Shown one piece after another: positions 3,777 through 45,719 of a DNA stretch of 64,000 nucleotides; within the stretch, counting starts at the first letter, position 1; each line of letters begins with the position of its first letter. Under the pieces are notes generated by a model. That model did no database searches and was not told the origin of the DNA. It saw only the letters and a list, made by a program, of their open reading frames with translations. This stretch comes from a virus (Duplodnaviria > Heunggongvirae > Uroviricota > Caudoviricetes). The stretch spans positions 1 through 64,000 of the IMG/VR virus record IMGVR_UViG_3300011614_000002; one strand, 5' to 3'. The position numbers were made by a program, and so were the translations under genes.

Positions 3777-3789
3777 CGGCGGGCTGCTG

Positions 3790-4310: not shown

Positions 4311-4612
4311 GTGAATTTATCTAATACGGTTCGTTTACGGAATCCAATCGGAGGCGTTCCGTTAATCAGATAGCGTGCTATTGGTTGAATTGATGCGTGT
4401 CGTGACGGAACTATGGTGTCAACGAAATGACCCGAAGTCCCGGTCCCTACCGGGGTTTGACGCGGAACTGCCGGTAACTGGCGATGGTTACCAACTTATT
4501 TACGCAAATTTTCTGGTCAAACGTCGCAGGGGGCATCATCTGATACCTATTCTGTGGTAAAAAACGCTTACTCAACTCTCCTTTCCGAGCTGTGGCGGCT
4601 CATCAGTGTTGA

Positions 4613-4656
4613 GAGAACCCCGGGTGCAGGGATGCACCCGGGGTTCTGCATTTCTA
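4613..4656. terminator. Strong hairpin, candidate bidirectional terminator
   Basis: Perfect 14-bp inverted repeat GAACCCCGGGTGCA-GGGA-TGCACCCGGGGTTC with T-rich flanks. It lies just downstream of the minus-strand gene that ends at 4684. Confidence 0.6.
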
Positions 4657-4683
4657 GGAGGCGGATTTGATAGCTGGCTCCTA

Positions 4684-6932: not shown

Positions 6933-8040
6933 GGCTCACCTCCACGCCGCCCTGGGCGCGCATAGCGGCGGCAGGCGGGGCTGTGTACCCACTGTGGGCG
7001 TCGGCGTTGTAGGCCAAGATGTCGGGCTCTTCTGCCAGCTCACCGATGATGTGGCGCACCTGGTCGGCTTCGTAGCGAACGCGGTCTGGGTATTCAGAGC
7101 GGGCAATGGTCAGGTGCGGACCATCCATCAAGCCGTCACCTTTGCGGTGAAGGATGGCGGTCCAGTTGGTCTTGCCGTTCGACTCAGGCATCGAGCCATA
7201 CCAGACGGTCAGCGCCAACGTCTCACCCGCTGCCACAGGCGGGGCGGTCCATAAGACGCGAACCGGCCACCCATGCCTCTTCTGATATTCGTAATACGCC
7301 TGCTTAGTTTCTATCCACTCGCCAGAAAGCCCCTTGTACTGATACACCAGCTCACCTGCAGCGGGCTGGGTGGCGAGGGCGGCGCGTAGACGGGCTATCT
7401 CGTCTGCCGCTTTGGTGACGGTCTCTTTATCCAGATGGTCCCAGCAATGGCTATTGCCGCGCTTGCCGTAGTTGAGCCCCATCGCACGCAGTCGCCATTC
7501 CATCGTGTCATCACCGGCATGCGCGCCCTGGGCTTCCTTCTCAGCCGTGCAGCCTGCGCACAATCCTGGTCCGCCGCACTTCATCACGACGCCATCGGCC
7601 CGCGGCGTTACATGTCCGTGTCCGGCCTCCTGCTGCTCGGCCTGGGCGTTGAACTCTTTCGCGTCGACTAGCTTCCTGGAGTAGTCCAGCAGTCGGCGCT
7701 CCCAGGGTTTCCCGACACCATCGTCATAGTTGAACAGGAAGCCGGCCACGATCCGGCGCATCTCCGCCAGCTGTGCCTGGGAGGATTGCAGCTCCGCGAG
7801 TACGGTGCGAAGCGTCGACTGAGTATGCTCTTGCCGGCTTCGGGCAGCATCCCGCTCCGCTTTCTCCCGCGCCAAGGCCGCACGCTGGGTCGTGTCGCGG
7901 GTGCGCAGGAATGCCTGAACGTTTTCGGGTGCGATATTGCTCAGCAGTGTTTCGAATTGCTCTTCGCTGATAGGTGCGGTGATCGTCATCGGTATCGTCT
8001 CGGTGTTCAACGGAACATGCCGGCGCGCAATGGCCGGCAT
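6925..8040 (-). CDS. hypothetical protein (371 aa, start uncertain)
   Basis: Long ORF with Cys cluster CGGPGLCAGC. No clean Shine-Dalgarno at either candidate start. Confidence 0.5.
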   Translation of the reverse strand: MPAIARRHVPLNTETIPMTITAPISEEQFETLLSNIAPENVQAFLRTRDTTQRAALAREKAERDAARSRQEHTQSTLRTVLAELQSSQAQLAEMRRIVAGFLFNYDDGVGKPWERRLLDYSRKLVDAKEFNAQAEQQEAGHGHVTPRADGVVMKCGGPGLCAGCTAEKEAQGAHAGDDTMEWRLRAMGLNYGKRGNSHCWDHLDKETVTKAADEIARLRAALATQPAAGELVYQYKGLSGEWIETKQAYYEYQKRHGWPVRVLWTAPPVAAGETLALTVWYGSMPESNGKTNWTAILHRKGDGLMDGPHLTIARSEYPDRVRYEADQVRHIIGELAEEPDILAYNADAHSGYTAPPAAAMRAQGGVEVSRG

Positions 8041-8057
8041 GGTGTTCTGCAGGGCGG

Positions 8058-8525
8058 TTACTCGGCGTCGGCGTTGTGCAGCTCTTCAGCTGCGCGCTTC
8101 AGGTCCAAGTGATCCCGCGGGCTTTGCAGGTCGTTGAACTGTCCCGTCACGACATACGCCGCGGCATCCACTCTCAAGGCGAAATTCTCAGCGGCGCGCT
8201 TTCGCTTGAAGCCATAGAGCTCTTCATCACCCGCGCGGCGCACGACACGCAGCTGACCGGTTTCATCGCGGCGCATGGCAACGTAGTAGGCAGGGTCGGG
8301 GGTGACGTCCTGATCGGGTAGATCCGCCGGCAAGCGCACCTCGGCCCAGCGATCGCCGCGCTCGATGACTGTGAGTAGGCCTTTGTCGGCCAGCGCGCGG
8401 ATCTCGGTGAACGTCTTGATCAGGCGATCGCCGCCGATCTGGACGGTCTTGCTCTGGCCTGGATTGGTGGACTGCTGGATTGAGCGCAGGATGCGCTGCT
8501 GCTTCTCGGTAAGCGATTTGCTCAT
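8058..8525 (-). CDS. LexA-N-terminal-like winged-helix DNA-binding protein, candidate phage repressor/regulator
   Basis: N-terminus LTEKQQRILRSIQ resembles the LexA DNA-binding domain. The gene sits directly next to the operator-rich control region. Confidence 0.5.
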   Translation of the reverse strand: MSKSLTEKQQRILRSIQQSTNPGQSKTVQIGGDRLIKTFTEIRALADKGLLTVIERGDRWAEVRLPADLPDQDVTPDPAYYVAMRRDETGQLRVVRRAGDEELYGFKRKRAAENFALRVDAAAYVVTGQFNDLQSPRDHLDLKRAAEELHNADAE

Positions 8526-8584
8526 TGGGTTGGCGCCCCTTGGAACGATTAAGCCGAATTGGCCTGATCATTCTAGGTTGCCTT

Positions 8585-8599
8585 ATCAAATATGATCAA
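8585..8599. promoter_or_regulatory. operator 18-mer TTATCAAATATGATCAAT (copy 2)
   Basis: Identical 18-mer to the copy at 37574-37591. Confidence 0.65.
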
Positions 8600-8669
8600 T
8601 ACGCTTGAGCAATTATGCCGGCTCGCTCAAATCGACCCGCGCGCCCGACTCGCCAGGGTGACCAGCCCC

Positions 8670-9170
8670 CAGTAACCGATTCGGGCAGGCACTCCCAATG
8701 CGTCGGTTGGGCTGCGGTAACCGAGGCCTAAAACAGCGCTGTAGTCAAGATGGGCGCGGGTTGTAGACGTGTCAGACCGGTGCCGGTTACCTGGCTGGTT
8801 ACTGCCCTGCAGCCGATCCCGGTAACCCTCAAATATGATCAACGCGCCTAGAGCCATCAGGGGTCGATGGGGCGAGTAACCGCATGGTAACCGGGCAGGT
8901 TTCCGACGAACGGCTAGAGCCATGCGGGGTCTTGCTCAATTCCGGTCAAAAGTAACCGGTAACCGGGAATCCCTAGACAGTAATAAGAAGGGATTGGGGC
9001 ATGTATAGAGTCAGCTCAGGTATGTGTGTGTTTATGTGGTTACTCTAGTTACTTCTTACTCATATTTGATAATAGATATAGATAGATAGAAGGGTTTAGC
9101 GGGATAGGTAGGGTAACCAAAAAGGTAACCAGGGCAGTAACTTAGGTAACCAGTAACCATGATGGCAGAC
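8670..9170. repeat. Array of about 14 direct (A/G)GTAACC repeats within an 800-bp non-coding region with an AT-rich core
   Basis: GGTAACC/AGTAACC recurs at about 8672, 8718, 8786(rc), 8798, 8823, 8876, 8886, 8958, 8965 and 9113-9160. The third and fourth 18-mer operator-like sites (8828-8842 and 9062-9073) are embedded in it. Confidence 0.7.
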
Positions 9171-9321
9171 GTACTGGCACCGGTCATCGGACAAACTATT
9201 AAGGCCCCCTTAACGATAGTTAAGAATCATCGTCACAAATGCTGAAAAGTTCCCCCCGACACTGAGGAACCCGTAAAATTCAACCTCGTTAGTAGGTAGT
9301 GATGCAGTTGGAGTCGGAGAC

Positions 9322-9858
9322 GTGGAATACTTCACATATCCAGAGCTGCCCGATCGGCTGATTTTTCAATGCAGCCGGCATAAAGCCGCTCTTCAGGTCG
9401 AAGCCTGCAAGGGTATGTGGACCGAAGCAAACGGTCGGACGCCACCCGATCGCTTGGCCCTGTGCCGCAATTGCCCCCTGGGGGCGCAGCACGCTGGGCT
9501 ACAGTCGTTCCAAGTCTCCAAACTGAAAGGAACGGGAATCTGTTCGAGATGCCACCGCGGTGGCATGCGCCTGGTACGGCAAGACATCTGTGTCAGCTGC
9601 TGGAATCGTGAACGGGAAGTGCTGGTTGGCAGGAACGCCAAAGGCAAGCCCCCGAAGCATCACCAGCCAGTTGATCGCCGGACCATCCGCATTCTCAACG
9701 GGGAAGAGATCATCCTCGTAGAACGCCCCCACTCCACCAGCACCGACGAACTGATTGTCGCGGCTCTTCGCGACAGCACTCGCCAGGTGTTCTTCGGGTT
9801 CCAATCCAAGCGTCCTCCTGCTGCCGCGCAGGCTCCCATTCAGGGAAGCCTGTTCTAA
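9322..9858 (+). CDS. Cys-rich putative zinc-binding protein (178 aa, GTG start)
   Basis: CxxC pairs (CRNCP, CSRCH, CVSCW). GGAG Shine-Dalgarno 4 nt before the GTG. Confidence 0.45.
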   Translation: MEYFTYPELPDRLIFQCSRHKAALQVEACKGMWTEANGRTPPDRLALCRNCPLGAQHAGLQSFQVSKLKGTGICSRCHRGGMRLVRQDICVSCWNREREVLVGRNAKGKPPKHHQPVDRRTIRILNGEEIILVERPHSTSTDELIVAALRDSTRQVFFGFQSKRPPAAAQAPIQGSLF

Positions 9859-9879
9859 ACAGGAAAGGAGATTGACGTA

Positions 9880-10293
9880 GTGACTGTGCACCTTATATCC
9901 GACCGTTCTGATGTAACCGATTCCACAAAAAAAGGACCCGTCGCAGCCCTGCGCCTAGTACCCGCTCAGCCGGCCCCTGTTGCGGCCCCGCTGTGGCACA
10001 TGGAATCGCATGTTTGCCGTGTTTGTTTCGCCCGGATCGTCTCCCGCCCAACTGAAGCAGGCCTGGTCGAATACCAGTGCACCAACTGCGGTGCTCAGGC
10101 TGAAGCGGCCGAAGTTTCGACCCTGTGTGCCTGCGGCGTGAAGATCCGCAAGAGCAATGCCCAGGGCCGGCACGGTGGGCAACTGGTAGACGCTGGCATT
10201 CGGTGCATGGCCAATCCCAAGCCGACGCCTGAGTTCCCGTCCCTATTCGTGGCGACGGAAGTGCCCCAGGAACAGGTCGCCCGTCGCGCCTGA
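9880..10293 (+). CDS. zinc-ribbon protein (137 aa, GTG start)
   Basis: CRVC...CTNC...CAC motifs. AAGGAG Shine-Dalgarno 9 nt upstream. Confidence 0.45.
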   Translation: MTVHLISDRSDVTDSTKKGPVAALRLVPAQPAPVAAPLWHMESHVCRVCFARIVSRPTEAGLVEYQCTNCGAQAEAAEVSTLCACGVKIRKSNAQGRHGGQLVDAGIRCMANPKPTPEFPSLFVATEVPQEQVARRA

Positions 10294-22702: not shown

Positions 22703-23245
22703 CTATCGGTTTTCTGGGTGCACCGCCTCGGCAGCTACTGCGAGAACCTCAGATTTGTTCATCTCTCGACCAATGAGATTTGGCCGAATGCGTTCAAACA
22801 CTGAGTACATTCGCGAGTAGCCTTCGACCATAGGGCAATGACTGTTCAGGTCTCGACCAGCGAAGGTTTGAAATAGCTCAAGGTCTGAGATGAGGTGATC
22901 AGCAATGCTCATGTGCTCGCTTTCGTTGTTGCCATCGAACCCTCGAAATTTGAGAGCGTATCCACCAGGCGCTGCAGCTACTTCTGCTTGATCAGCCGCG
23001 GGTAGTGACTCAACGGCTCTTTCAAGGAACTCAAACATATCCAGCACGTTAATGACGAAGCTCACGTCAAAAGGCGTCTCAGCGTCCGGGAACTGCATGG
23101 CGTACTTGAACGGCAGCATCCATCCAGAGCCGTGACTGATCGCCTTAGAGACCAGGCTAGGATCGAAATGCGTATCTGCTCCGACCTTTTCAGCAATGTC
23201 GGCCAGCATCAGGATGATCAGCTTTTGCTCATTTGTAGGGTTCAT
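22703..23245 (-). CDS. yfbU: YfbU (UPF0304) family protein
   Basis: N-terminus MNPTNEQKLIILMLADI and the segment YSRMYSVFERIRP resemble E. coli YfbU. Local GC is roughly 48% against about 64% elsewhere. Confidence 0.6.
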   Translation of the reverse strand: MNPTNEQKLIILMLADIAEKVGADTHFDPSLVSKAISHGSGWMLPFKYAMQFPDAETPFDVSFVINVLDMFEFLERAVESLPAADQAEVAAAPGGYALKFRGFDGNNESEHMSIADHLISDLELFQTFAGRDLNSHCPMVEGYSRMYSVFERIRPNLIGREMNKSEVLAVAAEAVHPENR

Positions 23246-23548
23246 TTCCACTCCATAGATGGGCCCTATGCCCACATTCGAGATTAGCACCGGGTAAAGA
23301 TGTTCGCTGATAGGGTCGCGTTGCCCCGTCGAGCTGAGCAGTAACCGCCCTGCCGTTACTGCCCGTTCCGACCAGTCGTGGGTGTCACCAGATAGCAAGT
23401 CTGAGGGCGGGGCGGTGCAATGCCGCGCTGCCTATCGCTTTGAGCGGTGCAAGCACCGGTTCGGGCGCAAATGGGGCGCCCGGACCGCCAGCAGCGGCTA
23501 TGCCCCCATCTGTCTGATCGGTCGGAAACGACAACAGAACAGCAATAT

Positions 23549-23592
23549 CTCAACTTGAGATTCACCATAGGGTGACGTATAGTGTGCGTCAT
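23549..23592. promoter_or_regulatory. Two palindromes upstream of higB, candidate HigA operators
   Basis: TCTCAA-C-TTGAGA and TGACG-N9-CGTCA. Confidence 0.5.
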
Positions 23593-23616
23593 GCGGTGCA
23601 GTATCGAAGGCATGGA

Positions 23617-23904
23617 ATGCGGATTATCAGCGAGGCCAGGATTCGAGAAGCGAAGGTGAAATGGCCCCAGGCCGCCACCGCGCTGGAAGCCTGGCGACAG
23701 TTGTTCAAAAACAACTCACCGAAGGACTTTGCGCAGCTCAAGCAGCTGAATCCAGCCGCCGACAAGTACAAGGACCTCTACATCCTGGACGTCGGCGGTA
23801 ACAAGATCCGGATCATCGTCACCATTCACTTCAAGGTGGACACGCTGTACATCCGGCACATCTTGGATCACAAAGAATACGACGCGGGTAAGTGGAAGAA
23901 CTGA
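23617..23904 (+). CDS. higB: HigB-like (RelE/ParE superfamily) type II toxin
   Basis: Small basic protein. Gene order is toxin first, then an HTH antitoxin. AAGG Shine-Dalgarno. Confidence 0.65.
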   Translation: MRIISEARIREAKVKWPQAATALEAWRQLFKNNSPKDFAQLKQLNPAADKYKDLYILDVGGNKIRIIVTIHFKVDTLYIRHILDHKEYDAGKWKN

Positions 23905-23906
23905 CC

Positions 23907-24332
23907 ATGAGCGCATTACTCAAGCAAGCGATTGATCACTGGGAATACGTCGCCCCGATCGCGAACAAGCCGACCAACGACGAAGAGTATCAGCGTGCTG
24001 TATCAGCGCTGGACTACCTCCTGGACCGTGTCGGCGAAGACGAGAACCACCCCTATAGTGGCCTGATCAAGCTGCTGTCTGACGGGATCGAAGCCTATGA
24101 CGCCGATACCTACCCAGACGAGCCTGTAGAGCCGCGCGACATGCTGGCTTTTCTGATGGAACAGCACGGGCTGCGCCAGGGTGACTTGCCAGAAGTAGGC
24201 TCGCAGGGCGTGGTGTCCGAAGTGTTACGTGGCAAGCGGGAACTTAATCTGCGCCAGATCAGAGCGCTGGCAGTACGGTTTCAGGTTTCGCTTTCCACGT
24301 TTATCCCTGATGTACGTATCTCAACGCACTGA
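23907..24332 (+). CDS. higA: HigA-like antitoxin with C-terminal XRE-type HTH
   Basis: C-terminal HTH segment LRQGDLPEVGSQGVVSEVLRGKRELNLRQIRALA. Starts 3 nt after the higB stop. Confidence 0.65.
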   Translation: MSALLKQAIDHWEYVAPIANKPTNDEEYQRAVSALDYLLDRVGEDENHPYSGLIKLLSDGIEAYDADTYPDEPVEPRDMLAFLMEQHGLRQGDLPEVGSQGVVSEVLRGKRELNLRQIRALAVRFQVSLSTFIPDVRISTH

Positions 24333-26564: not shown

Positions 26565-28523
26565 ATGACTTCGTTCCACAAGCCTGCACCGTTCAATTTC
26601 AAGACCCAGTACGGCCTTGGGTTCAATCCCCAGGATGATGAGATTGTCGTCGACTTCTTCTGCGGCGGCGGTGGCGCCGGTACCGGTCTAGAAATGGGCC
26701 TGGGCCGTACCGTCACTGTGGCCAAGAACCACAGCCCCGCGGCGATCAGCATGCACACCGCCAACCACCCCACTGCACGGCACTTCACCACCGATGTGTT
26801 CGAAGGGGATCCCGACACCGAATGCGGCGGGCGCCCCGTAGGCTGGTTCCACATGAGTCCGGATTGCACGCACCACAGTCAAGCCGCTGGCGGTCAGCCG
26901 CGGAAACGCGAGATCCGCAACCTATCGTGGATTGGGTTGAAATGGGCGGGGATGAAGCGCCCGCGCGTTATCAGCCTGGAGAACGTCAAGCAGATCCTGG
27001 CCTGGGGTCCCCTGATTGCGAAGCGCGATAAGGCTACCGGTCGTGTGGTGAAGGTCGACGGTACCGTAGCCGACGCCGGCGAGCGCGTGCCGGTCCACCA
27101 GCAGTTCTTGGTGCCGGATCCGAAGCGCAAGGGCCAGACCTGGCGCCGCTTCGTGCAGCTGCTGCAGGGCCTGGGCTATCAGGTGGAGTGGCAGGTAGGC
27201 CGCGCTTGCGACTACGGCGCGCCCACCAGCCGCGAGCGCCTGTTCATGATCGCCCGTTGCGACGGCCAGCCGATCATCTGGCCGGAACCGACGCACGCCA
27301 AGGTGCCGGCCAAGGGCCAGAAGCCATGGCGATCGGCCTCCGAGTGCATCGACTGGAGCCTGCCCTGCCCCAGCATCTTCGACCGGAAGAAGCCGTTGGC
27401 AGCAGCTACCCTGCGCCGTATCGCAAAAGGCATGCACAGGTTCGTCCTGGACGCTGCTGATCCTTTCATCGTGCCAATCGCCAACTGGTCGCAGGATGCG
27501 ACCCAATCTGCAGCAGACCCGCTGCGTACCGTCACCGCCTGGCCGCGTGGCGGTAGCTTTGCGGTTGCCAGCCCGATCATTGCCCCGGCGACGCATCAGG
27601 GTAGCGACCGGGTGAACGACCCATTGCAGCCCCTGCCCACTGTCACCTGCGCTAACCGAGGGGAGCAGATGCTGGTGAGCCCCACGCTGGTATCGGTCGG
27701 TTATGGCGAGCGGAACGGCCAAGAGCCACGCGTGCCAGGACTGGATAAGCCGCTGGGAACGGTAGTGGCCGGCGGAATCAAACATGCTGTGGCCGCCGCG
27801 CACCTGGTCAAATTCCGCTATGACTCGGCCGGCGCCGCTGCCGATGAGCCGATGCCGACCATCACCAGTGGTGGCAACTGCCAGCGCCCCGCTGGCGCGG
27901 CCCATGCCATGGGCATCGCCACCGCATTCATTGAGCAGGCCAACGGCGGCTTCAATGCAACGCCTGCACAGAGCGCAGAGCGCCCGATGACGACGGTGAC
28001 CAACTCAGGAAGCCAGCAGCGACTGGCAGTGGCCTCGCTGGCGACGCTGCGCCGCAACTGCACCGGGCAACCCATCACCGGCCAGGTGCCCGCGATCACC
28101 GCCGGCGCCGAACACCATGCGCTGGTGGAGTACCAGCTGGCGCCAGAGGTTGAAGCCGGCGCTCTGCAGGTGGCGGCCTTCCTGATGAGCTACTACGGCA
28201 CCGACAACACCAGCCGGCCGGACGACCCCTCGCCTACGGTCACCACCAAGGATCGCCTGGCGCTGGTCACCGTTACGATCCGGGGTACGCCCTACGTCGT
28301 AGTGGACATCGGCCTGCGCATGCTGCAACCCCGCGAGCTGTACCGCGCGCAAGGCTTCCCAGACGACTATCGCATTGACCATGGGCATGACGGCCGCAAG
28401 TTCACGAAGTCAGAGCAGGTGCATATGTGCGGTAATAGCGTCTCCCCGCCCCATATGGCGGCGATCGCCCGCGCGAACGACCCATGGCAGGTTCGGTCTT
28501 TAGACATGGTGACAGCGGCGTAG
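26565..28523 (+). CDS. DNA (cytosine-5)-methyltransferase, large target-recognition region
   Basis: Motif I DFFCGGGGAGTG, motif VI ISLENV, motif VIII RERLF, motif IX/X RELYRAQGFPDDY, plus GNSVSPP. The catalytic region reads SPDC rather than the canonical PCQ. Confidence 0.8.
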   Translation: MTSFHKPAPFNFKTQYGLGFNPQDDEIVVDFFCGGGGAGTGLEMGLGRTVTVAKNHSPAAISMHTANHPTARHFTTDVFEGDPDTECGGRPVGWFHMSPDCTHHSQAAGGQPRKREIRNLSWIGLKWAGMKRPRVISLENVKQILAWGPLIAKRDKATGRVVKVDGTVADAGERVPVHQQFLVPDPKRKGQTWRRFVQLLQGLGYQVEWQVGRACDYGAPTSRERLFMIARCDGQPIIWPEPTHAKVPAKGQKPWRSASECIDWSLPCPSIFDRKKPLAAATLRRIAKGMHRFVLDAADPFIVPIANWSQDATQSAADPLRTVTAWPRGGSFAVASPIIAPATHQGSDRVNDPLQPLPTVTCANRGEQMLVSPTLVSVGYGERNGQEPRVPGLDKPLGTVVAGGIKHAVAAAHLVKFRYDSAGAAADEPMPTITSGGNCQRPAGAAHAMGIATAFIEQANGGFNATPAQSAERPMTTVTNSGSQQRLAVASLATLRRNCTGQPITGQVPAITAGAEHHALVEYQLAPEVEAGALQVAAFLMSYYGTDNTSRPDDPSPTVTTKDRLALVTVTIRGTPYVVVDIGLRMLQPRELYRAQGFPDDYRIDHGHDGRKFTKSEQVHMCGNSVSPPHMAAIARANDPWQVRSLDMVTAA

Positions 28524-28591: not shown

Positions 28592-28795
28592 ATGAGTGAC
28601 ATAAATCCCATCAAGGCAGGCCATCGAACCCAGGCGGGTCGCCATCAAGCGGTCGTCTGGGAGGATGGCTATGTTGCCGCGATGGCTGGCCTGGGCTATG
28701 AATGCCCGCACCCGCTAGCCACCGTTGAAGCGATCCATTGGACCGATGGCCATGGCGAGGCCATGAAGACGCTGCGGTTCCTGCTGGATGCGTAG
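28592..28795 (+). CDS. hypothetical small protein (67 aa)
   Basis: AGGATTG Shine-Dalgarno. Confidence 0.35.
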   Translation: MSDINPIKAGHRTQAGRHQAVVWEDGYVAAMAGLGYECPHPLATVEAIHWTDGHGEAMKTLRFLLDA

Positions 28796-28801
28796 CTGAA
28801 G

Positions 28802-29809
28802 CTATAGCTCAGTTCGACTGAGCAGCTCGGCAGTTCCATCAGGAAACAGCTCTAGGTCGCAAACTTCAGCCTTGAAACCATGAGACTTGAAGTATTGGCC
28901 GATTTCTTCGAAATACTCCCTGTTCTCCGTAAAATTACACAAGTTGATAAGCGGGATTGCCGGCTTTGTCAGAGAAAATCCAGGCATTTCAGCCAGAACA
29001 CCTTCCTGAGAATGACTGAGCAGTACACCTACATTTCCCACGTTCAGCATGGTTTGGTAGGAGTCCACTCCGTTCACATTTGGCCACCTTCTCTTAAGGC
29101 CAGTCGCAATTGCGCTCAGAATTCCAATCTCTTCGAGATACAGCAGCTGACCGAATGGGAAGCCTGCATTCTCTAAGGCTCGGTTTTGGGTATCGTCTTG
29201 GAGCCTGAAGATAAACCCTTGCAGGACAAAGGGCGCAAGCTTGGCTATGAGTTCTGCATCTTCGGTGCTTAGATTCCGGATAAGGTCCAGGGTCCGCAAG
29301 CTATGGCTTCCAGGTGCTTTTACCTCGCCTGCGAGCAGCCGACCCCATATCTGCTGTAGGTCTTCAGCCGAAACCTCTCCTGCGTAATCTCGCCAACGCC
29401 GGATCCAGTCGCCGTCCACCGTGCGCTCTGGAGCCGGCGATGGATCCTGATGTAACTCTTCCTCAGCGCGCAGCAAGGCCTTAGCAACGTTTACTTCCCT
29501 GCGCAGGAGTTCATTGGTGTGCTGGTCTTGAACGATCGCAGGCAGCTCATCCAAATCGAATTCGGGCTCCAGTCGTTCCTCCACGCGAGCAATCCTGCGA
29601 TGGCGCGCTAGCTGGAAATCGGCCAGGGTCTTCTCACCACTCAGGATCTGTGCCGCATCACGCTCCCCCTGAGCCTCGATCCGCTTCGCGTCTGCCCGGC
29701 CATAGGCGTCGCGTCGCATCTGACCTGGTCTAAGCAAGGCGCCAACGCCGTTATCCGCGCAGGTCCTCCAAAGCGTCTGAACAAGCTCAGAAAAATTCCA
29801 ATCACCCAT
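28802..29809 (-). CDS. hypothetical protein (335 aa) in a low-GC island; candidate defence/moron gene A
   Basis: GC roughly 52%. No TM segment. No recognisable catalytic motif. Confidence 0.55.
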   Translation of the reverse strand: MGDWNFSELVQTLWRTCADNGVGALLRPGQMRRDAYGRADAKRIEAQGERDAAQILSGEKTLADFQLARHRRIARVEERLEPEFDLDELPAIVQDQHTNELLRREVNVAKALLRAEEELHQDPSPAPERTVDGDWIRRWRDYAGEVSAEDLQQIWGRLLAGEVKAPGSHSLRTLDLIRNLSTEDAELIAKLAPFVLQGFIFRLQDDTQNRALENAGFPFGQLLYLEEIGILSAIATGLKRRWPNVNGVDSYQTMLNVGNVGVLLSHSQEGVLAEMPGFSLTKPAIPLINLCNFTENREYFEEIGQYFKSHGFKAEVCDLELFPDGTAELLSRTEL

Positions 29810-29879
29810 CGGCTCTCTCCCAGGTGTCGACTTGTTCTATGACCACAGGAAACTCGCTTTTCTCGCTGTACGTGGATGG

Positions 29880-30344
29880 CAAAAATCCTAATCGGAACGT
29901 GCACAGCAGTGAAGTGGCCTAATTTCAGTGCAAGTGCTTGATAGCATTATAATATTTTTTTGAATTACTCTTGATTTAGTGTTTTTAAATGTTAAAACAT
30001 AAATACCCGAGGCTAATTATTATGATTTGTCGTTGTAGGGGGAATAACATAAAGAGAAAATAAACATGAGAAAATTACTTAAATATATAAGCATTGCAAT
30101 CACATTAGCAGTAACCGCATCTATCCCATCGTCTACAGTTCAACAATCTACGTCAGCGAAAGCACAGCAGGTGCTAGCTGCACCCGCTGCTTTAGGCGGA
30201 GGATGATAGCTCTTGGCGGCAGTTATGCCGCTCGGTCCGTCTCTCAGACGAATGTTACGGCGCCAGAGTCAGCGGTAAGCGTCCAAGCCATCGTATGGGA
30301 CTATGGCCAACGTGAGACGATGACTACCTTTTGATTACATAAAG
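29880..30344. other. AT-rich (about 30% GC) non-coding segment inside the low-GC island
   Basis: Extreme local GC drop. A 47-codon signal-peptide ORF (30066..30206, plus strand) lies inside. Confidence 0.6.
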
Positions 30345-31196
30345 CTACCAAAGCGGCTTTCTGACCTTAGTCTCTATTGGCTCCATGCGTATTTCATAAA
30401 GAGCAGCCAACACAGGAGCACGAACCCTCATGTCCGTGCCGAACCAGGAATTGTTCGCCATCTTTGCAGTGCTTTTTCTATCAAAATAATACGATTTAAA
30501 AAGATATACAGTGCTCGAATGTGTTAACAACGTGGTATGTGTCATACCCTTTAGAAAGAAACTTTGCTCTTTTAGTACAATTGAGGCGACCTCGTAATCC
30601 CACAGTAGGTCTCGGGTCCCTGGCATAGCCTGCGGCATATCTATTATTATTTTATTTGCAACTTCGAAGCGCTGTCTGTCTTCAATAATGTCGGCAACTT
30701 TAATTTCTGACAATTTTGCTGATAAATCGTCCAAAAACATATTCTGCCAGTGACTACCGACGATTCTTCTCTCTATACCTTGCGGAAGATGCCCATAGAA
30801 ATCGGCAAAATCCGTGCCTAAATTCGCTAAACGCCCCAACACCTTGAACAGATCTTCGAGAAACGTCTTGGATGTTGGATCAAGCGAGCGTATAGACTCT
30901 GACATCTTAGGTATCAGGGAGTCGGCCTCTTTCGCAATGTATGTGATTCTGGCCGTTTCTCTCGCTTTTCTGTACTGATACACGGCGAACACAAACGTTA
31001 TCACCGTAACAGCTTGACCTAGAAATTGAGCAAATTCATTCAGTCCGCTTTTTGTTACTGGCACGTAGACGACTACGGCGACAAATACAATGAACGCGAG
31101 TGAGGCAAGGCAAACAGGTAGAAGTCTAGGGTTTAGGAATTGGACGTCTAGGTAATTACCTAATCTCACTAGGTATAAGCGAATTGAATTCCACAT
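30345..31196 (-). CDS. 2TM membrane protein with cytoplasmic C-terminal domain (283 aa); candidate defence/moron gene B
   Basis: GC roughly 45%. TM helices LLPVCLASLAFIVFVAVVVYV and VTVITFVFAVYQY, followed by a soluble domain of about 200 aa. Confidence 0.6.
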   Translation of the reverse strand: MWNSIRLYLVRLGNYLDVQFLNPRLLPVCLASLAFIVFVAVVVYVPVTKSGLNEFAQFLGQAVTVITFVFAVYQYRKARETARITYIAKEADSLIPKMSESIRSLDPTSKTFLEDLFKVLGRLANLGTDFADFYGHLPQGIERRIVGSHWQNMFLDDLSAKLSEIKVADIIEDRQRFEVANKIIIDMPQAMPGTRDLLWDYEVASIVLKEQSFFLKGMTHTTLLTHSSTVYLFKSYYFDRKSTAKMANNSWFGTDMRVRAPVLAALYEIRMEPIETKVRKPLW

Positions 31197-31372
31197 AATT
31201 CACGCTGAATCCTTCCGGGCAATCCTTATAGCGATTCTAGCCTGAAGTCCCAAGACTTTGAGATAGATAGTGGGCGTAGCTGCAGCCTTGGCTTTCGTGC
31301 AGCATCAGGTGCGCACACGGAGATGAGCGTCGGGTGCCCTACCCAGCTCGCCTTCGCATAGTATTGTCCATG

Positions 31373-31717
31373 TCACCGGCCGCAATACCCATCGTACCGA
31401 TCGCCAGGCTCCTGCAGCTCCATCGGCATGTCTTCCCGCGCCATGTAGAACGGCACCCAGCCCGTCCAGCCGCCATTGGGCAAGAACTTCGACCGGATCC
31501 ACGTCTGCGCCTTGGCCTCGAAGGCGACGTCGCCACAGACAAAGCCAGAGGCCTTTCCTTCCCGCACATTGCGGACCTTCACTGAGTCGGGATTGCCCAG
31601 TTCGGACATCTCGCCCGCAGCGTCTTTAGCTTTGGATTCGAGCACGGGATCCGAGAACCCCATCAGGGCGAACGCTGCACCGCAGATGACAACTACGGCG
31701 CCCAGGGACTTCTTCAT
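31373..31717 (-). CDS. secreted/periplasmic small protein (114 aa)
   Basis: Signal peptide MKKSLGAVVVICGAAFALMGFS. GAGG Shine-Dalgarno 6 nt upstream. Divergent from the giant gene. Confidence 0.5.
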   Translation of the reverse strand: MKKSLGAVVVICGAAFALMGFSDPVLESKAKDAAGEMSELGNPDSVKVRNVREGKASGFVCGDVAFEAKAQTWIRSKFLPNGGWTGWVPFYMAREDMPMELQEPGDRYDGYCGR

Positions 31718-31804
31718 GCGCATCCTCTGCGTGGTTTGAAAACGGCGCGGATGGTACCAGAGCGCCTCGGCGCCGGTGCCCCGTCGTGACGCCAACATGG
31801 CGCC

Positions 31805-34800
31805 ATGAACAGACCTCACGCACCCCTGGCAGGGACTCTCCGGGTCCTACTGCTCAAAGCATCTAAGATCGCGCACCAGGCGGGTTTCTACCTGCAGGGT
31901 GGCCGCTGGCACAAGGTATCTCCGGAAAAGCCGGCCCCCGCCGGGCATCCGGTGCTTGCGCAGAAGCCCGAATCGGGCCATACGCGCATCACCGGCGAGA
32001 TGTGGCAGCAGCTGCACGATCAGCATCCAGCCAACTCGAACAAGGCGACGTACAGCAAGAAGCTGGACAAGCTCAAGGAGGCTTACCACGCGGGCGATAC
32101 GCACGCGATCCTGGGCGCCAGCTACCCCAACGACACCACCCACAAGAAGGTCGCTCATGTAGCGAACTTCGTTCTGGCCAACCTGGGCAGTGAGCACCAA
32201 GTGCATGCAGGGCTGAAACAAGGAACCCACCCTGCCCTCTCCCAGGCCCCCGCCGCTCCGGCACCGGCGCCGACGAACACCGAGTCCAGCCCCGCAACCC
32301 CCGCCCCAGCACCTGCAGCTGCCGCGCCCAAGGCCGGTAATTCCAGCATCGCCCTGACCCACACCCACTGGCAGTCCATCAAGGACGCTCACCCGGACAA
32401 CTCCAACAAGAAGGCCTTCGTCAGCAAGGTCGAGAAGATCCAGCAGGCCCACAGCGCCGGCGATGCCGATGCCATCCTGGGCATGAGCTACCCCAACGAC
32501 ACCACCGGCAAGAAGGTCGTGCACGTGGCCAACGCGGCCCTGGCGGACCTGGGTAGTGACCACAAGGTCCACGCCGGCCTCAAGCAGGACAGCCACGACG
32601 CCCTGGCGCAGAAACCAACGGAAACCCCAGCAGTTACCCCGTCTGAACCTGGCCCCAAGGACGGAGACACCAAGCAGGGCGCCGAAGGCGAACTGGTCTT
32701 CAAGGATGGCCACTGGCACAAGCAGGAAGACGCCAGCACCCGTACGGCCAGCACTGATGGCGCGACGGCCACAGACGTGACACCCAAGGGCCACGGTATC
32801 GATAGCCCGGAATCGTCTGACGTCGACATGGACAGCTACGCCGACCAGTACGGCGAGATGGTCAAGCTGGAGCAGGCCGGTGACGTCCAGGGCTTGAAGG
32901 ACTTCGCCGCCAAGCACCACAACGACCCCCAGCTCAAGAACCTGGCGCAACTGGCGAACCAGAAGCTCACCAAGCTGGCATCTGCGGCGGCGGAGAAACC
33001 AGCGGAAACGCCTTCGGTTACCGGCGGCACCGAAATCGAAAAACCCAAGCAGATCGTCGCCCCGACCGCTGCCGAGGTCGACGCGCTCAAGGCCGATCTG
33101 AAGGCCCTGGGCATTGGCGTGCGCGTGCTCAAGAGCAGCGGCGGCCTGATCGACGTCCGGCCCAAGCTGCCCGCAGGCGATGCCCTACCGCTGTTCACCC
33201 AGGACCAGTTGGCTCAGGTGGCCCAGGTCCTGGACAAGCACGGCATGACCTATGAGCTGTGCGCCTGGGCGGGCAAGACCATGGCCAGCTACTTTGCCGG
33301 TCAGGAAAAGAACGCCCTGAACCTGGTAGGCATGGCGCTGAACCACGACGGATCCCGCGGCACCAAGCCGCTGCCGGCGGCCACTGCCCCCGAGAAACCC
33401 ACGGTAACCACCGCTGAAGGCAGCGCAGTTACTGGCTTGGCCATGCCCAAATTCCTCGAAGGTGCCAAGACCACCGGCGTAGTGGCGCATTACCAGAAGG
33501 TGGCGCAGAAGGTGCTGGACCTGGCCTCGGCGGGAGATGCGGCCGGCCTGGCGCAGTTGAAGGCTGACGGCATGGCGCCCAAGACCGACGGCAAGGTCGG
33601 CAATACCTGGAAGGGCAAGACCGCCAACAGCAAGATCCTGCTGGCGCTGCATGATGCGGCCGCTACGCAGGTTGCCGGTGGCGCAGCCGCTCCTGCAGCA
33701 GCTGAAACCACCCCTGCTGCTTCCGCTCCGGACGCACCGACTGTTCCCGATGCGGCCCCGGCTGGCGGACTGCCAACCCCGCCCAAGTTCAAGAGCAACG
33801 ATGCACAACACCTGGCTAACGTCTGGCATCAGGTAGCCGAGCAGGGCAAGTACGCCGCGATAGCCCTGAGCGTAGAACAGGCCTCGACCACTACAGCCCT
33901 TGGAAACATTCCCGAAGCACCAGAGCTGGTGAGCTATGGGAAGGAGTTGCTAGCTAGCATGGCCGCGGCTGGCGCTGGCCCCAAAGAGGGCGACACCAAG
34001 ATGGGTGTCGAAGGCATGCTGGTGCTCAAGGATGGCCACTGGGTCAAGATGGACCAAGACGCTCACCCCATTGACGCCATTCCCATGCCGCCCCTGGAAG
34101 GCTTCTACAACCCGCAGAAGGTAGGCATTGCCCTCCAGGAGCTGAAGGCCAAGGTTAAGGCAGAAGGTCCGTCCGCCCTGAAGGGTGTGACGAAGAAGAT
34201 GTCCGCCACCGGCAAACTGATCACCAAGGTCGGGGGCTACAAGATCACGGGACACGTGAGCTCGGACAGTTCCCATTCGGCGGTCTACCACTACGTCGAA
34301 GCCCTGAAGACCGTGGCGGGCTCCCCGAAAAAGACCAAAGCCGCGGCAGCATCTGCAGCAGCAGCTGGCCCCGCGCCCTACGCGCCGCCGGAACCTGCGT
34401 CGGAATCCATAGACGGCTGGAAGCAGATCGGCCCCCAGGGTGGCTCCAACCCCGGCGGCAAGTTCGTAGACGACCAGGGCGTCGAATGGTACTGCAAGTT
34501 TCCCGGCGATCCGGACGTGGCCAAGAGCGAAGTGCTGGCGGCGAAGCTGTACGAAGCCGCGGGGATCACCGGCCAGGACTGCAAGCTGATCACCAAGGAC
34601 GGGAAGCTCGGCATCGCCAGCAAGTGGGTGGACGTCCAGAAGGCCGGCCCGGATGCCCTGGCCAAGGCCGAAGGGGTCGCCGAGGGCTTTGCCGTCGACG
34701 CCTGGCTGGCGAACTGGGACGTGGTCGGCCTGGCGTTCGATAACCTGCAGCTGGATGCCCATGGCCAGGCTGTGCGGGTCGATGCTGGCGGCTCCCTGGA

Positions 34801-36241
34801 GTACCGCGCCCAGGGCGGCAAGAAGGCCTTCGGCGAATCGGTCTCGGAGATCGACACGCTGCGCGATCCGAAGATCAACCCCCAGTCGGCCCAGGTCTTC
34901 GGCCACCTGACCGCCGCGGACATCACCGCCTCGGTGGCCAAGGTTGCCGAGGTCCCCGACGACGCCATCTATGACCTGGTCATGGAGTTCGGCCCGGGCA
35001 GCATGGCCGACAAAGCCCACCTGATCGACACGCTGATCGCCCGCAAGCAGGACCTGCTGGCCAAGTACCCCAAGGCGGCGAAGAAAAGCCAGAAAGCCAA
35101 GGTGAAGCCTGAAAAGCAGGATCCCACCGCCTTGAAGGTCGACCCCAGCCAGCTGCCGCAGCCGCACGACTTCCACAACTGGAACGGCCCAGGCAACGGC
35201 CTATCGTCCAAGACCCACGTCAACGACATGAACCTGAAGGCCGAGCAGGATCTGCTGGACTTCGCGGCCAAGGGCAACCTGATCGCGCTGAAGGACTATC
35301 ACTACGAGGCGGTCGACAAGGACACCGGCGCGCCGACAGGCCAGCAGCACATCGAGCAGCACCCGTCGCAGCACGTGAAGACCTACTGGTCCGACCTGGT
35401 CTCCACGCTGGGCTACATCGCCAACCCGCCGGAACAGCTCAAGCGCTTCAAGTCGGTCGTTGCCGCCGGCCTGAAGAAGGTCTCCGACGCCTTCGCATCG
35501 GCAGGCTATGGCACGACTACCTCCAAGGTGGCGGCGAACCAGCGCCTGGCGTTCTGGATCGCCCTGGGCCACACCAAACCGGTCGAAGCCCTGGTGCCCA
35601 ACCACGCCAGCCTGGAATTCCAGTCGACCCCTGTGGGCGTGCCCAAGATGACCGAGCAAATGAAGGCCGCGGCCAAGCAGGCCTATGCTAGCCTCGCTTC
35701 AGATCGCCTGGTCAAACGCTTCATCAACGGCATCCAGGCGTCGGGCACCTACAACGACAACTTCCGTGACGGCAAAATGGTCACTCACGATGGGAAAGAC
35801 GCTGTCGGCATGGTGCTCGATGCCTACTCCTACGCTACTGAGAAGCCCGAAGGCTTCGAGGTGTACAAGTGGGTGAGCTTCCCTGGCGACATGGGCAAGC
35901 AGATGCTGAACGCCAAGCCAGGCACCGTCTTCCAGAACCCGGGATCCATGTGCTGTTCGTACAACCCCACGGCCACCAGCGGCTTCGGTCCGGATCGGAT
36001 GCGGATCCGCTTCGCCAAGGGCTCGAAGGCCGTCGATAGCTTCGGCTCCGGTAGCTTCAGCAGTGAGCAGGAGATCACCACCCTGCCCGGCCAGCGGTTC
36101 GTCATCCTGTCGAGCAAGAAGGTGCACTGCCCGGTCAAACACAAGGAGCGCATCGAGCTTGACGTGCTGATGCTGCCCCCAGATGACACCTATGTGGCCG
36201 AACTGGAAGCCAATAAGGGGAAACATGGACAATCGTCTTGA
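31805..36241 (+). CDS. giant multidomain (polyvalent-type) protein: tandem N-terminal repeats, kinase-like core, C-terminal ADP-ribosyltransferase-like domain
   Basis: - N-terminal tandem repeat units: two copies of about 120 aa (YPNDTT(H/G)KKV(A/V)HVAN...VHAGLKQ).
- Second repeat family: KDGDTKQGAEGELVFKDGHWHKQ and KEGDTKMGVEGMLVLKDGHWVKM.
- Kinase-like core: KFVDDQGVEWYCKF, DAWLANWDVVGLAFDN and RVDAGGSLEY, resembling a HipA/PI3-4K-type catalytic loop and DxG.
- C-terminal ART-like motif: GSFSSEQEITTLPGQRFVI, matching the toxin (Q/E)xE-hhLPG signature, with a preceding S/T-rich stretch. Confidence 0.8.
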   Translation: MNRPHAPLAGTLRVLLLKASKIAHQAGFYLQGGRWHKVSPEKPAPAGHPVLAQKPESGHTRITGEMWQQLHDQHPANSNKATYSKKLDKLKEAYHAGDTHAILGASYPNDTTHKKVAHVANFVLANLGSEHQVHAGLKQGTHPALSQAPAAPAPAPTNTESSPATPAPAPAAAAPKAGNSSIALTHTHWQSIKDAHPDNSNKKAFVSKVEKIQQAHSAGDADAILGMSYPNDTTGKKVVHVANAALADLGSDHKVHAGLKQDSHDALAQKPTETPAVTPSEPGPKDGDTKQGAEGELVFKDGHWHKQEDASTRTASTDGATATDVTPKGHGIDSPESSDVDMDSYADQYGEMVKLEQAGDVQGLKDFAAKHHNDPQLKNLAQLANQKLTKLASAAAEKPAETPSVTGGTEIEKPKQIVAPTAAEVDALKADLKALGIGVRVLKSSGGLIDVRPKLPAGDALPLFTQDQLAQVAQVLDKHGMTYELCAWAGKTMASYFAGQEKNALNLVGMALNHDGSRGTKPLPAATAPEKPTVTTAEGSAVTGLAMPKFLEGAKTTGVVAHYQKVAQKVLDLASAGDAAGLAQLKADGMAPKTDGKVGNTWKGKTANSKILLALHDAAATQVAGGAAAPAAAETTPAASAPDAPTVPDAAPAGGLPTPPKFKSNDAQHLANVWHQVAEQGKYAAIALSVEQASTTTALGNIPEAPELVSYGKELLASMAAAGAGPKEGDTKMGVEGMLVLKDGHWVKMDQDAHPIDAIPMPPLEGFYNPQKVGIALQELKAKVKAEGPSALKGVTKKMSATGKLITKVGGYKITGHVSSDSSHSAVYHYVEALKTVAGSPKKTKAAAASAAAAGPAPYAPPEPASESIDGWKQIGPQGGSNPGGKFVDDQGVEWYCKFPGDPDVAKSEVLAAKLYEAAGITGQDCKLITKDGKLGIASKWVDVQKAGPDALAKAEGVAEGFAVDAWLANWDVVGLAFDNLQLDAHGQAVRVDAGGSLEYRAQGGKKAFGESVSEIDTLRDPKINPQSAQVFGHLTAADITASVAKVAEVPDDAIYDLVMEFGPGSMADKAHLIDTLIARKQDLLAKYPKAAKKSQKAKVKPEKQDPTALKVDPSQLPQPHDFHNWNGPGNGLSSKTHVNDMNLKAEQDLLDFAAKGNLIALKDYHYEAVDKDTGAPTGQQHIEQHPSQHVKTYWSDLVSTLGYIANPPEQLKRFKSVVAAGLKKVSDAFASAGYGTTTSKVAANQRLAFWIALGHTKPVEALVPNHASLEFQSTPVGVPKMTEQMKAAAKQAYASLASDRLVKRFINGIQASGTYNDNFRDGKMVTHDGKDAVGMVLDAYSYATEKPEGFEVYKWVSFPGDMGKQMLNAKPGTVFQNPGSMCCSYNPTATSGFGPDRMRIRFAKGSKAVDSFGSGSFSSEQEITTLPGQRFVILSSKKVHCPVKHKERIELDVLMLPPDDTYVAELEANKGKHGQSS

Positions 36242-43941: not shown

Positions 43942-44934
43942 CTAAATGTCCAGTGCTATTTGATCCTTTGCGACAACCTGGTTCAACGAGGCGAGTTTGC
44001 TCAGCCGGGCTTCGGCTTGCTCCCAGGTTTCTCCGGGGTTGGCGTTCTTCGAAATGTAATCGCGTGACAAGGGTCCCAAATTTCTCAAGGGGGCCTTTTC
44101 GACGGATGGCGCATCCTGAGGTGTGGTCTGCTTGGTTTGACTTGAACCAGTTGGTCCGACTGGTGTTACGGCGCTGGTTGCCATCGCGACAGAGCGGAAC
44201 GTGAACTTCAACCGGTCGGCCACGCGCCCCTTCTTGAGCACCTCGTATTCGACGAACATCCCGGCGCCTTCAGGCAGCTCGGCAATCGCAGGATCCAGCA
44301 CACGCGCCTGGAGGTTGTTGATCCGTTCATAAGCCTTGCCCAAGCAGAGCATTTCGCGGAAGTCGGTCAGCGACACCACGTAGTACCCGGCCCCGTCGAT
44401 TTCGTACCGCACCAGCAGCTGGAACAGGCGTATGGCATGGATGGACTTGAGCTGCACCACTCGGCGCAGACGGTACCGCGTGAAGTCACCCGTCAGGGCT
44501 GACAGGTAGGGCTCTATGCTGGGCGTGAAGAAGAGTTCGATCCAGGGCTCATAGCGTGGCGTGCCCTTCTCGAAGATCCAGCGGAAGTCGCTGTCCTTCG
44601 TGTTCTTGCCTGTCCCGCTGATGATGCGTACCGTCCGCTCATACAGGGTCGACGCCGCCGTCTTGATTGCGTCATAGGCCTGCTTCTCATCCATGCTGTA
44701 CGTGGCAGCGAACTCTCCGGCGTAGATCCGGATCGGGTTGATCAGCGGTTTGCGGGAATCGATCTTGGACAGAGCCAGCAGCAGCAGGCGCTGTTCCTGG
44801 AGTGTCAGCTTGTAAGCTGCTTCGATCAGGTGGTTGGACTTAGCGATCCAATCACCTTCCTTGGGGATTAGGACATCGTCGGTCATGACGACTCTCGTTG
44901 TTGGGTTGGCGGGGCCAGCATAGACCTCAATCAA
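43942..44934 (-). CDS. repA: Rep_3-family (RepA/pi-like) iteron-binding replication initiator
   Basis: N-terminal segment IAKSNHLIEAAYKLTLQEQRLLLLALSKID is typical of Rep_3 initiators. An iteron array lies immediately upstream. Confidence 0.75.
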   Translation of the reverse strand: MIEVYAGPANPTTRVVMTDDVLIPKEGDWIAKSNHLIEAAYKLTLQEQRLLLLALSKIDSRKPLINPIRIYAGEFAATYSMDEKQAYDAIKTAASTLYERTVRIISGTGKNTKDSDFRWIFEKGTPRYEPWIELFFTPSIEPYLSALTGDFTRYRLRRVVQLKSIHAIRLFQLLVRYEIDGAGYYVVSLTDFREMLCLGKAYERINNLQARVLDPAIAELPEGAGMFVEYEVLKKGRVADRLKFTFRSVAMATSAVTPVGPTGSSQTKQTTPQDAPSVEKAPLRNLGPLSRDYISKNANPGETWEQAEARLSKLASLNQVVAKDQIALDI

Positions 44935-44954
44935 CCCACTTGCTACAGGTTTAT

Positions 44955-45400
44955 TTTATGTAGCACGAAGAGGATAACCGGCTCAGGAAAGTCCGAAATT
45001 TGTAGCACCGAGTCGGAAATTTGTAGCTGAAAGTCCGAGATTTGTAGCTGAGAGTCGGAAATTTGTAGCACCGACCCCGCTGGAACCCGCGTCCTGTAAG
45101 GCTTCGCGGGGGTCCTATAAACAAGAGATAAACAAGAATAAAGGTTTTTATAAAGGGACAGCCTGTGGAAAGGCTTGTCCTGGGATCGGGAGAGCGGCAG
45201 TCAGACCGGAAAAGTCCGAAATTTGTAGCACGAACCAGCTAGCCGCACACAGCGACACGCCACCTGCTGCATAGGTCATAGCAAAAGTCCGAAATTTGTA
45301 GCACGAAACCCTGAGTAACCGTCGGAGACGATAGTCGGTTCCTGGTATGCAGATCCGCCCGAAACGCTCGGTGAAAAGTCCGAAATTTGTAGCACGAAGG
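44955..45400. repeat. Iteron array: 7 full and 1 partial copies of AAGTCCGAAATTTGTAGCACGAA with a central AT-rich segment (candidate oriV)
   Basis: Copies at about 44955 (partial), 44989, 45011, 45030, 45052, 45211, 45284 and 45374. AT-rich segment at 45120-45170. Confidence 0.8.
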
Positions 45401-45719
45401 GGGAGAGGGGAGGCGCCGTCTGTTCCGGCGTGTCAGCGACCCTATGTCTGATCCCGTTGCCCAATCGCGACAGGTCTATCAGCTTCTGGGATGGCCCCTG
45501 GCGAGGAACGTTCGAGAACAGCCATGGCCATGCTGCGGAGGTTTTTCAATGTCCAGGCACTCACCGCTTATCCTGGTCCGGTCCACTCGCTGATGCGAAC
45601 CCACCGGCTAGGCTCACCGCTCTACGACATCCCGGTTACCCCATCCGGAGCGCTTTTGGTGACCTGAGTCATGTGCGGCAATGAGCAAATCTTGCTGTCA
45701 CGACCTGTCGGTCGGGCAA

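Follow-up and report, generated by a model that had tools for sequence, protein, structure and literature searches.

The window analyzed here comprises the first 64,000 nucleotides (nt) of the viral record IMGVR_UViG_3300011614_000002 in the IMG/VR database and belongs to a contig of 88,407 bp. Positions 28802 to 31372 of the window form a low-GC island with two minus-strand genes, which encode proteins of 335 amino acids (aa) (gene A) and 283 aa (gene B). An original prediction had described the island as a candidate novel defense or exclusion module of two unknown genes, in which a membrane effector with two transmembrane (TM) helices acts together with a soluble partner. The two genes lie exactly where they had been placed (Table 1). 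Rather than a two-gene module, the region is probably a variable cargo slot of a phage-plasmid in which two single-gene cassettes, each acquired independently, are found.

The GC content of the island is 0.483, compared with 0.627 across the window, and the 1-kb segment with the least GC in all 64 kb begins within it, at position 29901 (0.425; mean, 0.627; standard deviation, 0.041). The span from 29880 to 30340, to which about 30% GC had been assigned, has a GC content of 0.419; the AT-rich core is confined to about 180 bp, from 29930 to 30110 (0.265), and the minimum in 300-bp segments is 0.34. The description of the spacer between the two genes as extremely AT rich applies to this core. However, the spacer is not empty, as it contains a near-invariant, putatively regulatory core, a possible open reading frame (ORF) of 46 aa, and the remnant of a second copy of a 67-aa gene, here called the anchor gene, whose intact copy ends 6 nt from the stop codon of gene A in convergent orientation. 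The island had also been placed between a C5 DNA methyltransferase gene and a giant gene, and these are indeed its neighbors, but the genes that directly flank it are the 67-aa anchor gene and a 148-aa gene.

Table 1. Features of the low-GC island and its surroundings, with positions in the window
Feature	Position	Strand	Evidence or remarks
C5 DNA methyltransferase	26565..28523	+	PF00145, 92 bits; PHROGs DNA methyltransferase, 346 bits
67-aa anchor gene	28592..28795	+	Left edge of the variable slot; convergent with gene A
Gene A, 335 aa	28802..29809	-	DUF2806; GC content, 0.542
Gene A upstream region	29810..30065		Holds most of the AT-rich core; probable promoter or regulatory region
Possible 46-aa ORF	30066..30206	+	Divergent from gene A
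Anchor gene remnant (3' part, second copy)	30260..30334	+	Convergent with gene B
Gene B, 283 aa, two TM helices	30345..31196	-	GC content, 0.434
Block without counterpart in L002 and L026	30244..31377 (+/-30 nt)		blastn and alignment
148-aa backbone gene	31373..31819	-	Right edge of the slot; 95 to 96% aa identity in L002 and L026
1478-aa gene, right-hand neighbor	31805-36241	+	No family match in Pfam or PADLOC

Three contigs from sister phages, L002 (88,452 bp), L030 (88,229 bp), and L026, show the limits of the slot. By blastn they share 92 to 97% nt identity with the window up to about position 28795 and again from about position 31371 to 31378 onwards, and between these limits the four genomes of the lineage differ completely or hold diverged alleles. 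L030 has no similarity to the window detectable by blastn anywhere in 28796-31370. The methyltransferase gene, with 94% nt identity in L030, belongs to the conserved backbone on the left of this hotspot. Each of the three sister phages carries a DUF2806 allele in the slot, and none carries gene B. The block that L002 and L026 lack consists of the anchor remnant, gene B, and the gene B upstream region. In L002 (11285-11890) and L030 (10289-10897), the anchor and methylase genes are separated by an additional gene of 201 to 202 aa that is lacking in the window, so the left side of the hotspot is variable as well.

The co-occurrence of the two genes in other genomes had been named as a check on the proposed pair, and its absence as an outcome that would refute it. 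In a tblastn cross-search with nine gene B family and six gene A family queries against all fetched loci, no relative of gene B was found in about nine distinct DUF2806 contexts, which included sister phages, two types of integrative and conjugative elements (ICEs), lambdoid prophages with the gene beside int/xis, and toxin-antitoxin (TA)-rich contigs; L030, an additional context judged by its called genes, lacks gene B as well. Likewise, no DUF2806 gene was found in the 13 gene B family loci, and the pair thus occurs in none of the contexts outside the window, which is the refuting outcome named beforehand. Two ICE loci, L001 with the only close homolog of gene B and L003 with a DUF2806 gene, share one backbone, with flanking proteins that are 87%, 58%, and 68% identical, and the gene B homolog of L001 fills the slot that is held in L003 by the DUF2806 gene and an 88-aa gene, which indicates that genes A and B are alternative cargo. 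The organization of the window is not that of an operon either: a gap of 535 bp separates the two genes, a conserved upstream region of its own precedes gene A, a remnant on the opposite strand lies between them, and their GC contents differ (0.54 versus 0.43). Genes A and B are not one system, and they are probably transcribed separately.

Gene A matches the Pfam family DUF2806 (PF10987) with 78.4 bits against a gathering cutoff of 24.5, with residues 103 to 302 aligned to positions 13 to 219 of the 221 positions of the profile, and all 39 listed homologs are precomputed as PF10987. It contains the core motif DxDW..RW....VS...LQ.LWG.LLAGE.K.PG..S.RTL..L.N, and W135, W155, G161, E162, P166, and R172 are invariant in a 33-sequence alignment of its family. 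Only gene B, which matches no curated family, is thus unknown in the sense of the original prediction, and gene A is not novel, as DUF2806 is the domain of the experimentally validated anti-phage system Belisama. By its sequence, gene A adds a new member to a family for which anti-phage evidence has been published; the family itself is not new. The match to Abi_alpha (PF14337) is below the cutoff (12.3 bits; E value, 0.16; cutoff, 29), making gene A at most a remote relative, and that to TIGR03899 is partial (64.3 bits against an NCBIfam cutoff of 155.65). PHROGs has no match to gene A, no Vibrio cholerae proteins are among the 120 profile matches listed, and a profile search of the PDB gave a designed protein as the sole match. 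A structure search of BFVD found one viral relative, which has no name, and scans of IMG/VR with the gene A and gene B proteins returned pattern matches only, with no confirmed relatives.

The source gene calls for genes A and B are shorter (305 and 219 aa, respectively); the N termini are conserved in the homologs, and therefore the long ORFs of 335 and 283 aa are the right ones. Structure prediction had been proposed as a further check. The AlphaFold2 (AF2) model of gene A, with a predicted local distance difference test (pLDDT) score of 79.5, consists of long N-terminal helices, a helical core to which the invariant residues map, and a C-terminal alpha/beta domain. Compared with the L002 allele, residues 1 to 200 are 82% identical and residues 201 to 335 only 28%, despite flanks that are 95 to 97% identical in DNA, and this split between the N-terminal and C-terminal parts recurs in every pair compared. 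The C-terminal domain may be a specificity domain, either exchanged or evolving rapidly, that is joined to a conserved functional core, and on the basis of this split, sensing is assigned to it, as we infer. The homologs of gene A are solitary genes, mostly on the strand opposite to that of their neighbors, and are found beside int/xis in (lambdoid) prophages, in ICEs, in phages, and in TA-rich contigs. Their only recurrent neighbor is the 67-aa anchor gene, which is missing in three contexts. Gene A is an autonomous single gene without a conserved partner.

Gene B has hydrophobic segments at residues 25 to 43 and 55 to 73 and none past residue 90. Positive charges sit before the first and after the second TM segment, which places the C-terminal domain in the cytoplasm and fits a topology with both termini inside and a cytoplasmic domain of about 205 aa, in agreement with the two N-terminal helices and the domain of about 200 aa described earlier. 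No match above the threshold was found in Pfam, PHROGs, PADLOC, or NCBIfam; a Pfam holin family (E value, 0.036; 14.5 bits against 28.8) and a PspM-like family gave weak, subthreshold matches. Gene B had no match in the phage and plasmid collections and has a single close homolog (P0002; 67% identity) among 5.8 billion clusters. An exhaustive HMMER search yielded 55 remote full-length relatives of 245 to 307 aa (E values, 2e-19 to 7e-4). In the family alignment, W150 and P261 are invariant, and three motifs are conserved: AQxATAxAF...QYxKN...RQ..L..EAK, which spans the second TM helix and the juxtamembrane region, 'KAIVRMHWQDMYFN', and 'DIRxxAPxLAA'. No Pfam family is common to more than one of 53 family members, and PADLOC has no match to member P0054.

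A scan for the family motifs with a subset of the alignment, in one genome per species, detected 12 loci, all in Gammaproteobacteria, and the hosts of the family include Pseudomonas, Vibrio, Aeromonas, Billgrantia, Cellvibrionaceae, and Alteromonadaceae. The family genes have GC contents of 0.32 to 0.42, compared with an overall 0.56 to 0.58 in their hosts; the Pseudomonas, Billgrantia, and Aeromonas loci average 0.55 to 0.58, and the backbone genes there are mostly at 0.55 to 0.70. With the window and L001 counted, the family adjoins known or candidate defense genes in 6 of 12 assessable contexts. The neighbors are PDC-S46 (691 bits) in L013, an OLD-family nuclease and a DUF6414 gene in L014, PDC-M38A/B in L019, and a DUF4062-SIR2 protein and an IS110 transposase in L011. 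In L012 the neighbor is an IS3-type transposase, and L018 has a weak ZorA-like match only; L010, L015, and L016 have no recognizable neighbor, and L009 and L017 are too short for judging the neighborhood. In locus L020 of Vibrio aestivus (JYJN01000042.1), the setting is an integron cassette in an attC-like repeat array. There, at 390-5215, attC/VCR-like repeats at a spacing of about 0.6 to 1.9 kb flank small ORFs on the same strand, as in a superintegron cassette array, and the family member, of which a 169-aa ORF is present, is possibly disrupted. In L015 (Aeromonas sp. 164P, 8001-8833), the member is split into ORFs of 94 and 180 aa (GC content, 0.32 to 0.34) among core genes with GC contents of 0.52 to 0.65, with transketolase on one side, and it is probably a decaying solitary insertion.

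Homologs of the anchor gene (49 to 77% aa identity) lie beside cargo in L001, L002, L003/4, L023-25, L026, and L029; the homolog of L001 adjoins the gene B homolog, and the others adjoin DUF2806 genes. In L030, a 67-aa gene is called at the anchor position. The anchor gene is missing from three DUF2806 contexts (L005, L007/8, and L027/28) and occurs without adjacent cargo on the Pseudomonas psychrotolerans plasmid CP018759; this distribution marks it as part of the backbone rather than as an obligate partner. It has no match in NCBIfam and a single, unannotated match in the plasmid collection. An assignment to CrpP/Rmf was dropped, as the Pfam RMF-like matches are subthreshold (E values, 0.03 to 0.08). 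The anchor gene probably serves as a homology arm for the exchange of cargo between phages and ICEs.

The second copy of the anchor gene was recognized in the ORF at 30203..30334, residues 20 to 43 of which match residues 39 to 62 of the L003 anchor (50% identity; E value, 4e-5; small targeted search). It lies in the block that sister phages lack and is convergent with gene B, as is the intact anchor gene in L001. The AT-rich core upstream of gene A is near-invariant in three phages, its conservation in the alignment exceeds that of the coding DNA to its left and right, and a perfect TATAAT box is present on the gene A strand; this region is probably the promoter or regulatory region of gene A. 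No Rfam family and no tRNA was found in the spacer. The 46-aa ORF has a signal-peptide-like N terminus (MRKLLKYISIAITLAVTA...), and its length and frame are kept in L002 and L026. It shows no signal of purifying selection, with 5 synonymous versus 9 nonsynonymous changes and an even distribution of 5/5/6 over the codon positions. Its product could be a small peptide that is secreted or resides in the membrane, or the ORF could simply belong to the regulatory region.

The element that carries the slot is related to cultured myoviruses of about 86 to 95 kb. Its large terminase, of the GpA type, shows 69% identity to the counterpart in Aeromonas phage ST4, 67% to the one in Pseudomonas phage Touem01, and 58% to those in Pseudomonas phages Jeremy and Dolphis. 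Touem01 is predicted to be temperate and carries an integrase and a ParA-like protein (PMC11256456). In the window, a Rep_3 plasmid replication initiator is encoded at 43942..44934 (PF01051, 118 bits; Rep3_C, 55 bits), and next to this gene (43942-45414) the 21-bp iteron AAGTCCGAAATTTGTAGCAC occurs at least seven times, with four of the copies in tandem at a spacing of 21 bp. This arrangement is a plasmid origin of the iteron type within a myovirus genome of about 88 kb and implies a phage-plasmid lifestyle. Structural and packaging genes and plasmid replication functions, the combination that characterizes phage-plasmids, lie together on one replicon as judged from the genes, and episomal maintenance is predicted. 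A milder low-GC patch (22703-24332; GC content, 0.53 to 0.56) encodes a YfbU-domain protein on the minus strand. It also encodes a HigB-type toxin, after which comes the likely antitoxin, an ORF of 146 aa; this module is 79 to 85% identical among the sister phages, compared with 92 to 97% in the backbone. Because of the Rep_3 gene with its iterons, the HigB module, and the predicted temperate lifestyle of Touem01, the window is read as a phage-plasmid, probably a temperate one of about 88 kb from Pseudomonas, so that prophage cargo is a fair frame for the island; the earlier view of acquired accessory cargo in a temperate type of phage holds.

Several other features were observed in the window. 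No tRNA genes were found in a search of it, and a further stretch with a GC content below 0.55 is located at 8301-9900 (1-kb segments starting at 8301-9001). The giant 1478-aa gene has a homolog in phage Jeremy that is annotated as an ADP-ribosyltransferase. Within the giant gene lies the only stretch of the region that megablast matched to cultured phages (34406-35077). A repeat of about 215 nt is present inside the gene (32024-32238 versus 32390-32604; cross-match of about 72%), and its product varies between 1418 and 1478 aa among the sister phages.

Temperate phages and their satellites, such as P2 and P4, have variable hotspots in which known and new defense genes are clustered at fixed positions. 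The slot described here is similar in its fixed position, its conserved backbone edges, and the differing low-GC cargo in near-identical genomes. It differs in that a small anchor gene links the slot of the phage-plasmid lineage with that of an ICE family, so that both share it, and in that two cassettes stand in tandem with an anchor remnant between them. Under the explanation that we regard as probable, the recombination hotspot beside the anchor gene would hold two tandem-stacked cassettes, and the simplest course would be that two units of anchor plus cargo accreted in tandem, with the anchor of gene A remaining intact and that of gene B reduced to a remnant. The anchor would act as a homology arm through which cargo is traded between ICEs and phages. 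The DUF2806 protein of the first cassette would protect the population by lysing or killing infected cells; its N-terminal helices and DUF2806 core would form the effector or scaffold, and its hypervariable C-terminal alpha/beta domain would set what is sensed, although this division into sensor and effector is predicted from the conservation pattern. In the second cassette, two helices would anchor the gene B product in the inner membrane, with the helical domain in the cytoplasm, and the protein would be an autonomous membrane-anchored defense or superinfection exclusion protein. Its family is low in GC and only sparsely distributed, and it is met repeatedly in defense islands, in an integron cassette, and in the ICE slot.

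Known systems offer parallels for the first cassette. Belisama, an anti-phage cassette from the superintegron of Vibrio cholerae, consists of a single DUF2806 gene; it causes strong and unrecoverable culture lysis at a high multiplicity of infection, is toxic when overinduced, and has homologs in 70 genera, all within Pseudomonadota (Darracq et al., bioRxiv 10.1101/2024.07.02.601686). Gene A shares with it the DUF2806 domain, the autonomous single-gene organization, and the occurrence as mobile cargo in Pseudomonadota, but genes of its kind are found here in a phage-plasmid hotspot and in ICEs, whereas Belisama is carried by an integron cassette. A long helical extension at the N terminus and the hypervariable C-terminal domain are further features of gene A, whose likeness to Belisama is one of domain. 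Abi-alpha (EF2833) of Enterococcus faecalis prophage 6 is a single-gene abortive infection protein that causes premature lysis, and a similarity to PF10987 was noted by its authors (PMC6356687). It resembles gene A as a prophage-borne single gene with this similarity, but gene A falls below the PF14337 cutoff and is not a member of that family, and the host of Abi-alpha belongs to the Firmicutes.

RexAB and Sucellos, which combine a cytoplasmic sensor with a membrane ion-channel effector, superficially consist of the same parts as the island, namely one soluble and one small membrane protein in a prophage, and they give some plausibility to a single abortive infection system in which a soluble sensor, gene A, activates the effector with two TM helices, gene B. 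The two genes are indeed adjacent on the same strand within one low-GC island. Nevertheless, we consider such a system very improbable: the pair co-occurs in none of the contexts searched outside the window, three sister phages keep gene A without gene B, the two are alternative cargo of one ICE slot, the two genes differ in GC content and in evolutionary history, the 535-bp gap with its conserved upstream region and opposite-strand anchor remnant argues against an operon, no similarity to any PADLOC model was detected, and DUF2806 functions as a single gene in Belisama. It is also unlikely, if less so, that gene A and the convergent anchor gene form a true two-gene module of an effector and a small regulator or antitoxin, and that gene B borrows the same partner. 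The anchor gene lies 3 to 40 nt from the stop codon of the cargo gene in most contexts of the DUF2806 subclade of gene A, it also adjoins the gene B homolog in L001, and a remnant of it has traveled with gene B. However, the three contexts that lack it contain DUF2806 homologs at 52 to 57% identity, plasmid CP018759 has it without such cargo, in the phages it is co-oriented with and downstream of the backbone methylase gene, and the truncated copy in the window implies that gene B needs no intact anchor.

The rival that retains the most weight, although we still judge it rather improbable, is that the cargo serves another accessory or competition function, with gene B acting in entry exclusion, lysogenic conversion, or the envelope and gene A as a maintenance or addiction factor. 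It would accord with the remote DUF2806 genes on 308 plasmids, with the close DUF2806 genes in ICE and phage-plasmid backbones near TA modules, and with the toxicity of overexpressed Belisama; in addition, gene B has no relative with a tested function, and its holin-like and PspM-like matches hint only at membrane biology. On the other hand, DUF2806 has direct anti-phage evidence, the neighbors of the gene B family are defense genes (PDC-S46, OLD, PDC-M38, and SIR2) and not transfer or envelope genes, and a prophage site adjacent to int/xis is typical of defense cargo. A role in defense or exclusion, as originally proposed, is still the best available reading of both genes.

Several observations weigh against two independently acquired defense cassettes as the explanation of the slot. 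The function of both genes is assigned by homology or association. DUF2806 is a broad family, and gene A is tied to Belisama by a shared domain and not by direct sequence comparison; the 308 plasmids with a remote member are mostly conjugative, about 28 to 36 kb in size, and from Enterobacteriaceae. PADLOC 2.0 contains no model that matches gene A. The AF2 model of gene B, built from a two-sequence alignment, is unusable (pLDDT, 41.6), and 3 of the 12 assessable gene B family contexts (L010, L015, and L016) have no defense-like neighbors. The anchor remnant is identified by a single 24-residue match, and the cultured relatives Jeremy and Touem01 have no such cargo at the matching position. An anti-phage function of gene A in this element is nonetheless suggested by its family. 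For gene B, the neighboring genes point to a role in defense through guilt by association, and an anti-phage function may be proposed on that basis. It is conceivable, and we put it forward tentatively, that gene B is the founding member of a family, not described before, whose single-gene, membrane-anchored proteins act in anti-phage defense or superinfection exclusion and are carried as low-GC cargo by phage-plasmids, ICEs, integron cassettes, and defense islands of Gammaproteobacteria, with the anchor gene marking a hotspot at which phages and ICEs exchange cargo. Of the two genes, gene B is of greater interest, as a testable candidate for a new defense family.

The reading of the island as a two-gene system was plausible but wrong, and cloning the pair as one cassette would confound two separate functions. 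With gene A, a DUF2806 gene of the Belisama type is now placed in a lineage of phage-plasmids, with turnover at the level of alleles. A C-terminal domain with 28% identity amid genomes that are otherwise 95 to 97% identical is what an arms race would be expected to produce in a specificity domain, and the gene A alleles of the sister phages are natural chimeras with which it may be mapped what DUF2806 proteins sense. For gene B, a compact and formerly unannotated family of membrane proteins becomes available as a defense candidate, together with a list of its homologs and contexts. The small anchor gene indicates a route by which the same cargo appears to pass between ICEs and phages.

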